From sequence record PV654397.1: a stretch of 64,000 nucleotides of DNA. The stretch is one strand, 5' to 3'. Positions 7,241 to 36,095 of the stretch are shown piece by piece (the first letter of the stretch is position 1; each line of letters opens with the position of its first letter). The notes under the pieces are model-generated. The model had not been told where the DNA came from. It did no database searches and worked only from the letters and a program-made list of their open reading frames with translations. The translations under genes were made by a program, and so were the position numbers. Origin of the DNA: Escherichia phage WPEC5.

Positions 7241-7741
7241 TTAGGTCACAGCTTTGTATTTCTCCATTGCTTCGGTGATATTCAATACTGCTTGCGGTAC
7301 GTCACTTTTGTTGTATGCAGTGGTTAGTTTTTCCATGTTATTGAGAAGACTTAGAAACAATGGAAGTACTTCTGCATTGTCACTGAAGTTACAATCATTG
7401 ACAGTACTCAATTGGAATAACTCACCTGCATCAACATTGAGTGTGTTGTATTCTTTAACAATGTTTTCTTCAGTATTGAAGATGTAGAATACAGTCCCCA
7501 TGTGGTGTAAGTATACACCAGTATCATTCTGAATATGACATGGGGTGATTACAATTGCTGTGTTATCAATATTATTTACTATTGTCAAACGAAGACTATG
7601 TAACCCAAAGATTACAGTACAATCCTTTGTACTGTGTTGGATCTGGTCACTAGTAAAGGAAGACCCACTATGATTTTTAGATCCATTTAGTATTTCTTTG
7701 ATAATTTTAAATGAATACTTCATCGAATTAGTTAAAAGCAT
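7241..7741 (-). CDS. Family A paralog, hypothetical
   Basis: Core motif GELFQLSTV; first clear member of the tandem array. Confidence 0.6.
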   Translation of the reverse strand: MLLTNSMKYSFKIIKEILNGSKNHSGSSFTSDQIQHSTKDCTVIFGLHSLRLTIVNNIDNTAIVITPCHIQNDTGVYLHHMGTVFYIFNTEENIVKEYNTLNVDAGELFQLSTVNDCNFSDNAEVLPLFLSLLNNMEKLTTAYNKSDVPQAVLNITEAMEKYKAVT

Positions 7742-8141
7742 GAACTTTACCTTTAAGTAAATTAATTAATGTTCGCATAGATTCAGTACTGACAGTACCA
7801 AAATCAACACCTAAGCACTCGTATTGAAAGAACTCAATAGAATCAATTGAGTCCAAAGGAATCTCAACAACCTGATTCCCTATACCAGACATAGTAACAT
7901 TGCTTTTATTAATCGTCAAGAAGTTTTTTGAATAAGTATTAAATTTTAGTGAAATCGCATCGGGGTGCTTTGTAACAATGCAGTACTGGGAGCCATACAC
8001 ATATAGTACTTTACTTTCACTAAGATCCGTTTTAAAAAAATGAATCCCATTGAAGTATTTCTCATTGGCTTTCATCGCCGCGATTAGTTCATCTGTTGTT
8101 GTTAACCTTGTTTCGTTCTTCGTTAAACTGTTGAAAAGCAT
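7728..8141 (-). CDS. Family A-like paralog, hypothetical
   Basis: Variant motif IEFFQYECL. Confidence 0.55.
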   Translation of the reverse strand: MLFNSLTKNETRLTTTDELIAAMKANEKYFNGIHFFKTDLSESKVLYVYGSQYCIVTKHPDAISLKFNTYSKNFLTINKSNVTMSGIGNQVVEIPLDSIDSIEFFQYECLGVDFGTVSTESMRTLINLLKGKVHAFN

Positions 8142-8562
8142 AGAATACTACCTTAACCATTTGTAGTGTTTCAGACATTACTTCTGATGAAAATTCAACA
8201 TCATTGAATTTCAGCATAGTGTTCTGTGTAAAGAAAGTTGCTTCTAAGTCTTCCAGATTGAAGGGTTCATCAAACAAATTAGTACTGAACATGTCAGTCT
8301 TCTTCTTGTATGTGAACAAGAATTTGGAATTATAACGAAGAACTATTTCATCTTTATTAACCAAAATACGTGCAATGTTCTGACGTGTCAATGTGGTAAT
8401 GTTTAAATTGAACACGTTCTTGCGTGTTTCAGTGATATCAACAAAATACCCATCTCCCTGATGGATATTACATCGTACATCCAACCCTTTCTGTACTGTA
8501 TTGAACAGTGCATCTTGAATAAAATAATTTGCTGTATCGATGTTTCCTAAAATGTCTAACAT
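8089..8562 (-). CDS. Family A-like paralog, hypothetical
   Basis: Degenerate motif EATFFTQNTML. Confidence 0.5.
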   Translation of the reverse strand: MLDILGNIDTANYFIQDALFNTVQKGLDVRCNIHQGDGYFVDITETRKNVFNLNITTLTRQNIARILVNKDEIVLRYNSKFLFTYKKKTDMFSTNLFDEPFNLEDLEATFFTQNTMLKFNDVEFSSEVMSETLQMVKVVFYAFQQFNEERNKVNNNR

Positions 8563-9074
8563 AACTTCTCCTTGATTGCTGTCATATTTAGAAGAAATTC
8601 TTCAAGCAATTCCTCTGTAACATACTCAACATACCAGAATATCACAATATCTTTTGAAAGTCGAGTATTCTTAAAAATATCTACTAACTCTTTGTAGTAC
8701 TCAAGATCATATACATCTTTTATAATTAGTGAGTACTGAAATAGTGATTCTTCAGTTAACTTAAATTCTGGATATAGTAAGTCATTAAATTCTAATGATT
8801 CTGATTGTACTTTTATTTTAGTGAAGTCATTTGTTAATCCACCATTACATCCATATAATGCAGCGTAATTCACGAACTTGGCTTTTGGATTAAAATCAAG
8901 AACAGTTTCACCATTATATGACAATCGGTGGAACGCCGTGAACTTTGTAATTTGCCACGGTTGCTTAATATCTAAGTCATTTATGTCTTTATTATTGTAC
9001 ATAAGAACAGTGAATATTTCAGCAATCTTCAATAATAATTTAGTACGTGCTAGTACTGTCATAGGTTCAATCAT
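8556..9074 (-). CDS. Family A paralog, hypothetical
   Basis: Motif EESLFQYSLII. Confidence 0.6.
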   Translation of the reverse strand: MIEPMTVLARTKLLLKIAEIFTVLMYNNKDINDLDIKQPWQITKFTAFHRLSYNGETVLDFNPKAKFVNYAALYGCNGGLTNDFTKIKVQSESLEFNDLLYPEFKLTEESLFQYSLIIKDVYDLEYYKELVDIFKNTRLSKDIVIFWYVEYVTEELLEEFLLNMTAIKEKLC

Positions 9075-9487
9075 TATACACCTTCATATTCATCAAGGAA
9101 ATCTTCGATGATCATTTCTGCGTCATCCATGTGCATAGCATCAACTTCAACAATGCGAACCTTAGACGTATCCCAAATCATATAGCTAGGAACTGTATCT
9201 GGTTCGTAATCGTTTTTGTACTGAACTGCATCATAGCCGTTAATTTCGCAGTACTCAATCACTCCACGCCATTCGTCGTCACTGCCCATATCCGTCCACA
9301 GAAGCACGTTATCAACATCAACTTCTAAGGTATGTAAGTATACTGTATCAGCGTCAACAACGTTCAGTGGGCTTCTCAGCTTGCGTAATGCAGCTTCTAA
9401 AGCACTGTGTTTGCCACCCATATGAAGGCCACCATACGGGATATAAAAGTTATCAATTTTTACAGTACTCGCATGATACAGTTTCAT
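9074..9487 (-). CDS. Hypothetical protein
   Basis: Minus ORF inside the array; no clear family motif. Confidence 0.5.
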   Translation of the reverse strand: MKLYHASTVKIDNFYIPYGGLHMGGKHSALEAALRKLRSPLNVVDADTVYLHTLEVDVDNVLLWTDMGSDDEWRGVIEYCEINGYDAVQYKNDYEPDTVPSYMIWDTSKVRIVEVDAMHMDDAEMIIEDFLDEYEGV

Positions 9488-9496
9488 TATTCATTC

Positions 9497-10081
9497 CTAT
9501 TTCAGTACTTTGACCAGGGCTTTAACCGCTGTTTCAAGTTGTGCAAAGTCGTTGATTGTAAGATAATGAATACCCAATGTACTCATTTCTGAATCTATTT
9601 TACTATACAAATCGAACATGTCAAGTAGATATTGATATGTATATGACTCCGATGACACACATGATTCTTGAAATAGACGTTCTTCCATATCATTTACTAC
9701 TTCATCATTTGCGTCTCGAATCACACCATCTTTGTATGTGTAGTAAATCTCATCCCATTCATCTGATAAGCGGAATAGTAAAGGTTTACCATTAAACATC
9801 TCAAGGTCATATGCATTGACTTCACTCAATAACATATCATCAGGATCAGGTGTGAAATCGAATTGAGCGAGTGAAGAACCATCATAATCCTTAAGGAATA
9901 CACCAATAGCATTCAATTTAACTTCGCCATAATTGCCATTCTTGAACTTTACACGAATATTAATATCAATGTTTTGAACAGTATCATCATCTTGGAATTG
10001 ATAATCAATTTTATACTTTTCCCAAAGTTTTTTAATATCTTTAAAGTACTTAATTTTACTTTCTATTTCTTTAAAGTTCAT
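9497..10081 (-). CDS. Family A paralog, hypothetical
   Basis: Motif EERLFQESCV. Confidence 0.6.
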   Translation of the reverse strand: MNFKEIESKIKYFKDIKKLWEKYKIDYQFQDDDTVQNIDINIRVKFKNGNYGEVKLNAIGVFLKDYDGSSLAQFDFTPDPDDMLLSEVNAYDLEMFNGKPLLFRLSDEWDEIYYTYKDGVIRDANDEVVNDMEERLFQESCVSSESYTYQYLLDMFDLYSKIDSEMSTLGIHYLTINDFAQLETAVKALVKVLK

Positions 10082-34919: not shown

Positions 34920-35137
34920 GAGTACTGGTACGTTGTCGTTAGGGTAGGGACCATGTTTGTAATGGGCATGTTGTTAACAATAACCGTAACAGGCATAAGA
35001 ATCGTCTCTACTCTACTCTGTCCTGTCCTTGTACAATTCATCTTCTGCATTTCATCTGAATCCATGAAATACAATACAAATGGTGCAATCCCAAGAACAA
35101 TACACAAGACGATAAGGAAATTTAAAAAATTCAACAT
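34892..35137 (-). CDS. Small hydrophobic protein, possible membrane protein
   Basis: N-terminal hydrophobic stretch FLIVLCIVLGIAPFVLYF; lies in a 277-bp gap of the array. Confidence 0.35.
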   Translation of the reverse strand: MLNFLNFLIVLCIVLGIAPFVLYFMDSDEMQKMNCTRTGQSRVETILMPVTVIVNNMPITNMVPTLTTTYQYSCTDGERWR

Positions 35138-35196
35138 AATTTTTACCCCATGATTAACGTACAGGTACTATATCAGTAATGAAAAGTACTGTCAAG

Positions 35197-35571
35197 CTAG
35201 TATTGCACTGTTCTAATGAAAGTACCTTTACTCATGGATTTAAGCTTATGAACCTCTTCCTGCATACCCTTAATTAACCCTAAAGGTATAGGTAAATCAT
35301 GTACTAAGCTGTACTGAAAGTATTCTTCTTCAGATAAAGTACTAACATCTGGAATGCCAATTTTAGTTAGATAATCTTGATGTGTTGACCAATAAATTAT
35401 ATCTTCAGTACTATTGTACTCCCCATATACTGAACAATATTGATGAATATCTTTCCTGTACCCTTGAGCAATAAAGAACTTATCTACTGCATTACCAGCA
35501 TTAATAGAATTCACTTCGATTGTCACAGTACTTGAGCTTGTTTTTCCTTTACTATGCATATTAATCCCCAA
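35197..35571 (-). CDS. Family A paralog, hypothetical
   Basis: Motif EEEYFQYSLVH. Confidence 0.6.
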   Translation of the reverse strand: MGINMHSKGKTSSSTVTIEVNSINAGNAVDKFFIAQGYRKDIHQYCSVYGEYNSTEDIIYWSTHQDYLTKIGIPDVSTLSEEEYFQYSLVHDLPIPLGLIKGMQEEVHKLKSMSKGTFIRTVQY

Positions 35572-35747
35572 ATTAGATATCGAACACTATCAGCTTGATA
35601 GTTAGTTCCTACTGTGTGTTTTAATATTAACTCATCTTTCAGTACTGAACATTCTGCATTAGATATAGGAAGAGAATTAATTCTTTGAATTTCTGGTCGC
35701 AAAATACCGCGAAGCTTGCGGTAATCTTCGTATGATAATATTTTCAT
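35523..35747 (-). CDS. Family B small paralog, hypothetical
   Basis: Motif LKHTVGTNYQAD. Confidence 0.5.
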   Translation of the reverse strand: MKILSYEDYRKLRGILRPEIQRINSLPISNAECSVLKDELILKHTVGTNYQADSVRYLIWGLICIVKEKQAQVL

Positions 35748-35750
35748 TGT

Positions 35751-36095
35751 TTAGTACTCAACGATGTGTTCTTCATAATCACCATTAGGCTCCTGTTTAG
35801 ATTCTTTCATTAGTACTACCATTTTATGTACTAATGGCATAGGAAACTCCAAATCCCATACTAATGATTCTTGAAAGTATTCCTCTTCAGATAAAGTACT
35901 TAAATCTTTAATATCAACGTGCTTGTATATTTTATTTTCGTAATTAACAAATGATATATATAAATCACTAACATAAGAATCATAGGTAATTGTGAATGGT
36001 TTACCCTTGTAATCCATTACATCTCTACATAGACTACTTTTGATATATGTATGTTCAAATGATTTATATACCTTGAGTTGTATATTAGTTTTCAT
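35751..36095 (-). CDS. Family A paralog, hypothetical
   Basis: Motif EEEYFQESLVW; last family A member. Confidence 0.6.
   Translation of the reverse strand: MKTNIQLKVYKSFEHTYIKSSLCRDVMDYKGKPFTITYDSYVSDLYISFVNYENKIYKHVDIKDLSTLSEEEYFQESLVWDLEFPMPLVHKMVVLMKESKQEPNGDYEEHIVEY

Follow-up and report, generated by a model that had tools for sequence, protein, structure and literature searches.

The window analysed here, a 64,000-nucleotide (nt) stretch of Escherichia phage WPEC5 (PV654397.1), carries on its minus strand, at 7241-36095, an array of 68 tightly packed open reading frames (ORFs), 41 of which are firm members of a single protein family with a shared [ST]EEx[YL]FQxS core, called family A below. 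By megablast, the window is the reverse complement of the leftmost 64 kb of an Escherichia coli jumbo phage genome of the genus Asteriusvirus (121Q/PBECO4 group); window positions 7241-30000 were 98.7% identical to WPEC3, 98.1% identical to fEgEco12, and 83-88% identical to 121Q, SP27, CRJP21, and others. The physical ends of fEgEco12 and its 20,993-bp direct terminal repeat have been mapped experimentally (PMC13070987); position 1 of that genome, the physical left end, aligns to window position 64000, and the end of its terminal repeat maps to approximately window position 42339. From the left end, the order is thus the 21-kb terminal repeat, then an array of a second family (family B), then the family A array, whose genes lie 28-57 kb from the physical left end and are all transcribed away from it. 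At ∼29 kb, the family A array region makes up roughly 8% of a genome of 350-380 kb.

An all-versus-all BLASTP comparison of every ORF of at least 50 amino acids (aa) in the window revealed two large paralogue groups, A and B. Group A comprised 27 linked ORFs at 10.6-36.1 kb, and a hidden Markov model (HMM) of this group, iterated within the window, converged on 41 ORFs spanning 7241-36095. The 68 minus-strand ORFs of at least 50 aa in this interval tile 28.9 kb; besides the 41 members, they include one probable member, approximately seven borderline ones, and five family B genes, and the remainder are without signal. BLASTP, HMM, and motif counts therefore all bear out the contiguous minus-strand tandem array with a common core that had been proposed in a preliminary description of this DNA, although its figure of at least 50 paralogues, comprising almost every minus-strand ORF, came down to 41 of 68, with one more probable and about seven borderline.

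The family A core reads [LM]-[ST]-E-E-x-[LY]-F-Q-x-S-[LT]-[VIL]-[YHFW]-[DN], and both the alignment and the HMM confirmed that it is positionally conserved: F and Q are fixed in 41/41 members, followed by S at +3 (33/41), E at -4 (30/41), and E at -3 (26/41). A loose form of the motif, [YFLWHM]FQx[ST][LIVTCF], occurred 29 times in the minus-strand frames of the region and twice on its plus strand, and the remainder of the window contained it a single time over six frames; residue shuffles of the same proteins averaged 0.19 occurrences and never exceeded 2. The part preceding the core varies in length, with 59-164 aa before the FQ, and the part after the FQ is shorter (median 51 aa). The core and the variable N-terminus thus stood as first described; the WYFK and FYxDxD motifs that were said to occur often did not, since they are subfamily features present in only 4/41 and 7/41 members, respectively.

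Both BLASTP and the HMM identified the members at 10670-11221 (183 aa), 11233-11814 (193 aa, also by its match to phrog_34636), 16132-16626 (164 aa), 16614-17027 (137 aa), 17845-18324 (159 aa), 20211-20807 (198 aa), and 22096-22539 (147 aa), together with short forms at 17011-17373 (120 aa), 18925-19263 (112 aa), 19253-19612 (119 aa), 22539-22853 (104 aa), 34248-34559 (103 aa), 34569-34919 (116 aa), and 35197-35571 (124 aa). The members assigned by the HMM lie at 7241-7741 (166 aa), 8556-9074 (172 aa, LTEESLFQYS), 9497-10081 (194 aa), 12732-13310 (192 aa), 14532-15116 (194 aa by ORF call, with a shorter start in the 121Q and fEgEco12 annotations), 15043-15609 (188 aa), 17366-17848 (160 aa, TEEMYFQGS), 18384-18974 (196 aa by ORF call, with the phrog_28549 match beginning at residue 20), and 21653-22099 (148 aa, TEEGYFQGS). 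They continue with 22850-23293 (147 aa), 23268-23759 (163 aa, net charge -30), 23762-24202 (146 aa), and 24199-24669 (156 aa), which form a quartet of the WYFK subfamily, and with a second quartet of 24853-25269 (138 aa), the short forms 25199-25564 (121 aa) and 25561-25920 (119 aa, also by its match to phrog_15629), and 25917-26342 (141 aa by ORF call, 125 aa in the fEgEco12 annotation). The remainder are 27081-27707 (208 aa), 27987-28625 (212 aa), 29320-29895 (191 aa), 29970-30467 (165 aa), 30774-31343 (189 aa), the short forms 31315-31665 (116 aa) and 31662-31973 (103 aa), which are a recent tandem pair sharing 57% identity, 31963-32469 (168 aa) and 32546-33106 (186 aa), a tandem pair sharing 39% identity, and the short form 35751-36095 (114 aa), which comes first of all family A genes in transcriptional order.

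When the non-member ORFs were compared with family A by hhalign, only 28715-29323 (202 aa, FFFQLSLV) passed, with a probability of 72% over the motif region and an HMM E-value of 0.1, and it is regarded as a probable diverged member. Approximately seven others gave weak matches over the motif region (probability 1-8%) that are suggestive and cannot be counted. In the first HMM pass, the first 41 residues of ORF 11801-12307 (EENEFQNNTL) weakly matched the family A core; directly upstream of it, ORF 12304-12732 is of typical family size and is not a member. These two minus-strand ORFs could be a diverged or rearranged pair, and both are conserved in 121Q, with a ratio of nonsynonymous to synonymous substitution rates (dN/dS) of ∼0.28.

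Genes of the array abut or overlap by a few nt, as had been noted, with a median spacing of -4 nt. Across both the A and B arrays (7241-42241), the 4-nt overlap occurs 25 times, and only seven gaps in 7241-36095 exceed 40 nt. Five of these seven gaps contain coding-strand promoter sites matching at least 10/12 consensus positions, mostly with an extended -10 element, and two of the five follow terminators. Specifically, a sigma-70-type promoter (TTGACA-17-TG-TATAGT) lies at 35167-35195 in the gap 35138-35196; an intrinsic terminator (29982-29961) followed by a promoter (TTGACA-17-TG-TACAAT, 29923-29951) lies in the gap 29896-29969; a 10/12 promoter-like site with an extended -10 lies at 28640-28668 in the gap 28626-28714; a perfect 12/12 sigma-70 promoter with TG lies at 18358-18387 in the gap 18325-18383; and a terminator (14533-14514) followed by a promoter (TTTACA-17-TG-TATAAT, 14472-14500) lies in the gap 14445-14531. 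Promoter-like matches inside the A and B arrays overall were at chance level. From the promoters in five of seven gaps and the overlapping genes, the arrays are predicted to consist of a few long, sigma-70-headed operons that would be readable by the host RNA polymerase, with overlapping genes that are probably translationally coupled. A promoter-like site at 26305-26277 was not counted, being inside a coding sequence as annotated in fEgEco12. The longest non-coding gap of the array, 26295-26502 (∼208 nt using the fEgEco12 start of the downstream gene), contains a G8 run and an A/T-rich stretch, and no strong promoter, terminator, or Rfam match was found in it.

The encoded proteins are 103-212 aa long, with a median isoelectric point (pI) of 4.84 and net charges from -30 to +6, only a few members being extreme. 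No transmembrane-like, hydrophobic, or secretion-type segment was found in 40 of the 41. The single member with such a feature, 27987-28625, has a strongly hydrophobic stretch at residues ∼10-29 (Kyte-Doolittle 1.91) ahead of a family domain that starts at residue 41, and its product may be a membrane-anchored or secreted variant. None of the 41 members matched Pfam-A at E ≤0.001, all weak matches being below the curated cut-offs; the best PDB sequence match had an E-value of 0.4; and PADLOC-DB gave only five scattered single-member matches, with E >4e-4 and no family common to two members. All members matched PHROGs, split over 27 of them (e.g., 13866, 12674, 9317, and 15629), each of "unknown function", and no existing PHROG unites the family.

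An AlphaFold2 model of the member at 23268-23759, for which the 41 paralogues served as the alignment, reached a predicted local distance difference test score (pLDDT) of 78.8 and a predicted template modelling score (pTM) of 0.74. An N-terminal helix is followed in it by a six-stranded sheet, where confidence is lowest, and then by three to four C-terminal helices. Confidence peaks (pLDDT 97) in the segment holding the motif; the motif itself is modelled as a short helix with a longer one after it, and its [ST]-E-E start looks like a helix N-cap in this model. The conserved C-terminal core is accordingly modelled as an N-capped helix plus a longer helix, and the beta-sheet region preceding it is predicted to be the part that varies in length and sequence. 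No structural neighbours of the model were found in the PDB, and no fold likeness to Ocr, ArdA, or another solved DNA mimic was seen. The domain thus remained as unrecognised as it had first appeared, with no profile match to a well-characterised common phage protein family in Pfam or the PDB.

Two explanations of the family as a whole bear directly on these protein features. One is that E-E-x-Y-F-Q-x-S is a processing site of the TEV (tobacco etch virus)/3C protease type, E-x-x-Y-x-Q-(G/S), and that the family consists of cleaved precursors. Members 17366-17848 (EEMYFQG) and 21653-22099 (EEGYFQG) do match the exact TEV consensus, as do three RaK2 members with EEGYFQGS (L004, 18155-18577, 20001-20492, and 17221-17595); however, the P1' residue differs among members (E, Y, Q, L, N, and others), the model places the motif in a helix within the packed part of the fold that has the highest confidence, and no 3C-like protease was identified here, so that this explanation is extremely improbable and the matches are almost certainly coincidental. 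The exact TEV site in at least two members nevertheless matters for expression with TEV-cleavable tags. The other explanation, polymorphic effector/immunity-like modules, had been raised in the preliminary description and is not supported: the polarity is reversed, with a variable N-terminus and a conserved C-terminal core, and neither a toxin domain nor an alternating two-gene pattern was found, nor a signal-like segment in 40 of the 41 members.

A profile search of 1.84 billion representative proteins recovered 141 clusters at E ≤0.001, one of which, a 773-aa protein with 14 motif-like stretches (P0006), was rejected as a false positive, being an unrelated low-complexity tandem repeat. Where a source was named, nearly every match belonged to an Asteriusvirus phage or to an E. 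coli assembly that contains one; the sole exception was a partial protein from a 563-bp contig with the label Actinomadura. A tblastn search with the member at 17366-17848 reached 44 phage records, 31 of Escherichia, 9 of Klebsiella, and 4 of Salmonella, RaK2 among them. In Klebsiella phage RaK2 (Alcyoneusvirus), at least 27 members with the core T-E-E-G-Y-F-Q-x-S were detected by the window-derived HMM. The RaK2 array is syntenic, being upstream of the same methylase and cytidylyltransferase genes as the window array, and it yielded 15 reciprocal best hits (e.g., 7241-7741 with RaK2_30742_31239, E 1e-11; and 15043-15609, E 2e-12) whose order is collinear (Spearman -0.73, p 0.002; the coefficient is negative because the two arrays run in opposite orientations), with protein identity of about 29%. 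The gene at 1915-2439, downstream of the window array, encodes a widespread Dam-type methylase with 1349 matches, too many for it to be of use as a synteny anchor in distant RaK2-like genera.

Within Asteriusvirus, orthologues of the array are included in genes ∼344-408 of 121Q, and family A copy number at the same HMM threshold was 41 in the window, 121Q, CRJP21, and the more divergent A4; the count of 36 in fEgEco12 applies to a locus cut at 50 kb. The A4 array (L005) contains a 1.4-kb gene annotated as "methyl-accepting chemotaxis protein" inserted mid-array at 25100-26512, showing that the array tolerates insertions, and HNH endonuclease genes lie just downstream of it. In the window, 15 of the 41 members had an adjacent family member as their nearest paralogue, compared with ∼2 expected, which is a signature of tandem duplication. 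Lineage-specific duplications younger than the split from RaK2 were found at 22850-24669, 24853-26342, 31315-31973, and 31963-33106. As judged from these sequences, family A arose by tandem duplication, largely before the divergence of Asteriusvirus and Alcyoneusvirus.

Reading frames were intact in every genome examined, and 35 members had positional one-to-one syntenic orthologues in 121Q. Across these 35 pairs, median dN was 0.146, dS 0.625, and dN/dS 0.23 (pooled 0.20), with none >1, and the comparison with CRJP21 gave a median dN/dS of 0.25. By part of the protein, the core had a dN/dS of 0.23, the N-terminal part one of 0.30, and the C-terminal tail one of 0.31; for comparison, flanking genes had values of 0.17-0.19 and family B 0.35. 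Each paralogue is thus kept individually by purifying selection. An alternative is that the array is duplicated ballast filling an enlarged head (the capsid-genome ratchet), its products being without specific function; the clear tandem-duplication signature fits this, but neutral filler would have decayed, and the intact frames, the dN/dS of ∼0.2 over 35 pairs with none >1, and the collinearity with RaK2 at ∼29% identity largely refute it, leaving it very unlikely. The same gene-wide dN/dS and the fixed copy number, 41 in all four Asteriusvirus genomes counted, also argue against current diversifying selection, which had been suggested to be strong. Neither of the marks of a genomic accordion, copy-number variation and relaxed or positive selection, was found for family A, which is old and stabilised and not an active arms-race accordion.

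Several observations on related phages bear on when, and in what setting, these genes act. In the related phage PA5oct, terminal-repeat genes belong to the early class and transcription depends on the host RNA polymerase (PMC7318152), and the authors of the CBB genome suspected early host-takeover genes in the equivalent region (PMC5259590). A host-takeover context, proposed at the outset, or that of an early accessory region, is consistent with the position of the array, which adjoins the terminal repeat 28-57 kb from the left end and has sigma-70-type promoters at the operon heads. By mass spectrometry, 62 proteins were detected in the virion of phAPEC6, none of them encoded by gp348-gp548 (PMC7247149); a phAPEC6 family A member, gp442c, is within this undetected gp347-gp549 interval, and family A proteins are therefore non-structural as far as this dataset tells, the sensitivity of mass spectrometry being a caveat. 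These data leave very little probability that the proteins are packaged in the virion or its inner body and enter the cell along with the DNA, even though an inner body is visible in phAPEC6 by cryo-electron microscopy (PMC7247149) and small acidic internal proteins are known in T4.

The reading that we tentatively favour, giving it somewhat less than an even chance, is that family A is an ancient multigene family whose products are early, non-structural proteins that bind host or defence targets, a function that we infer for small, mostly acidic, soluble proteins of jumbo phages of the RaK2-like group (Asteriusvirus in E. coli, Alcyoneusvirus in Klebsiella). Under this proposal, the genes would be transcribed early or delayed-early by unmodified host RNA polymerase, and the paralogues would act as a panel of binding proteins: the helical core common to all of them would provide either the fold or a shared point of contact, and a distinct host or defence target would be set for each paralogue by its variable sheet region. 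In its logic, the panel would resemble the multigene families at the genome ends of large eukaryotic DNA viruses, and also the small early host-takeover proteins of T4, T5, and SPO1. Some points weigh against it. The papers searched contained nothing direct on expression, interaction, or phenotype for any member; the early timing is suggested by promoter consensus and by parallels with PA5oct and CBB; a stable copy number under purifying selection is atypical of fast arms-race genes; and the second AlphaFold2 model, that of the short form at 35751-36095, was of low confidence (pLDDT 66.9, pTM 0.56), with the topology of the first model minus its first helix.

The same genomic context would also suit an arsenal for superinfection exclusion or inter-phage competition, directed against proteins of competing phages or mobile elements and not against host functions. 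A gene annotated "protein spackle" in fEgEco12, by name a homologue of the T4 superinfection-exclusion protein, lies in the adjacent terminal repeat, and one member had a sub-threshold Pfam match to superinfection exclusion gp17 (E 0.46), which is a lead only. That match is far below the curated cut-off (11 bits versus 25), membrane localisation is not predicted, and nothing separates exclusion from host targeting; overall, we consider an exclusion arsenal rather unlikely. Alternatively, the paralogues might be subunits or regulators of one phage process, either as transcription or replication factors of differing specificity or as a hetero-oligomeric assembly formed via the shared core. Strong conservation and fixed copy number across the genus agree with such a role, the helical core could, from the model, be an oligomerisation interface, and Iyer et al. 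suggested that the ∼35 zinc-ribbon copies of phage G serve as transcription factors or in DNA binding (PMC7824862); however, the acidic pI (median 4.84) speaks against nucleic-acid binding, and no metal-binding or DNA-binding motifs and no Pfam match were found, so that a role in a single phage process is unlikely. A further, decidedly improbable variant is a modular adaptor, in which the invariant F-Q core would dock all paralogues on one host or phage machine (a protease, RNA polymerase, or the ribosome) and each would use its variable beta-sheet part to recruit or block a target of its own. If true, this would make family A a bacterial-virus equivalent of the ankyrin/F-box or BTB-kelch substrate-adaptor families of poxviruses, with a previously unseen fold.

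The neighbouring family B array (36085-42241, minus strand) consists of ∼27-28 genes that overlap one another, encode 65-94 aa, and share an LGTNYQE motif; it begins 98 bp past the terminal-repeat boundary and is headed by a promoter at 42272-42299, just inside the unique region. BLASTP identified 31 family B ORFs of 65-94 aa, mostly at 36.1-42.2 kb, and the total is ∼32 genes, including minus-strand copies inside the family A array at 20755-20982, 20924-21151, 33816-34100, 34052-34264, and 35523-35747. The family B consensus, Mk.Lt..Ey...LGTNYQE..v..yi.aL...Ik.K, matches phrog_4148 (unknown function), and profile comparison by hhalign found no relationship between families A and B. Copy number is more variable in family B than in family A, with 32 genes in the window, 26 in 121Q, and 31 in CRJP21.

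The region equivalent to the terminal repeat (42339-64000, minus strand), which matches the 20,993-bp repeat of fEgEco12, contains small genes with their own consensus promoter cassettes. Of its 110 sigma-70-like sites, compared with 68 expected, 12 are perfect coding-strand promoters (TTGACA-16/17-TATAAT). They lie within an intergenic cassette of 56-95 nt, present in at least 26 copies on the minus strand of 42300-64000, with the order promoter (TTGACA or TTGCAA, 16 nt, TATAAT), GTTTTACATC, hairpin GGGGAGAA...TTCTCCCC, and ribosome-binding site; with this cassette before the small genes, nearly all of them are provided with a strong promoter of their own and with a conserved hairpin in the 5′ leader. 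Eight plus-strand "ORFs" that resemble one another (48-62 kb) sit amid the repeated cassettes and are probably antisense read-through of them, not genes. Rfam and tRNA scans of the window gave no matches.

Among large eukaryotic DNA viruses, the MGF360/505 families of African swine fever virus and the poxvirus Bcl-2-like and ankyrin/PRANC families have demonstrated roles in host range or immune evasion. Like family A, these terminal families comprise dozens of divergent paralogues of one fold near a genome end, and are non-structural, tandem-duplicated, and individually retained. There is no sequence or fold relationship between them and family A, whose host is bacterial, whose role is inferred, and whose copy number is stable and not accordion-like. 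Among phages, early takeover clusters include the pre-early region in the T5 terminal repeat, the host-takeover module in the SPO1 terminal repeat, and the small immediate-early genes of T4. These share with family A small genes of unknown function at or in a terminal repeat, strong host-type promoters, and inward reading; however, they are clusters of unrelated genes, whereas family A is one family in 41 copies just outside the repeat. To our knowledge, ∼41 copies place it among the largest single-family expansions of phages. The zinc-ribbon expansion of phage G (∼35 copies; PMC7824862) is likewise a very large single-family expansion of a jumbo phage with unknown function, but its domain is recognisable, with DNA-binding or transcription-factor roles proposed, whereas family A is acidic and without a recognisable domain.

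In the same phage lineage, observations of the same kind have been reported: Hua et al. (2017) described tandem gene arrays in jumbo phages 121Q and G (PMC5646251), a description repeated in a 2026 review and fitting family B better than family A, and ∼10% of RaK2 proteins were reported to be paralogues (PMC3622015). In the published literature searched, no paper was found that defines family A, its motif, its cross-genus conservation, its selection regime, or its structure. Family A is thus a real and unusually large phage multigene family, previously undescribed as such, although its kind is not categorically new. With no Pfam entry and its members scattered over 27 PHROGs, the family has gone unannotated as a unit. 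It offers a tractable candidate set for host-takeover or anti-defence screens, and a single HMM captures it in both genera. Its duplicates have been kept one by one since before the jumbo-phage genera of E. coli and Klebsiella split, which bears on how jumbo-phage genomes grow and argues for functional retention, and not only a capsid-size ratchet.

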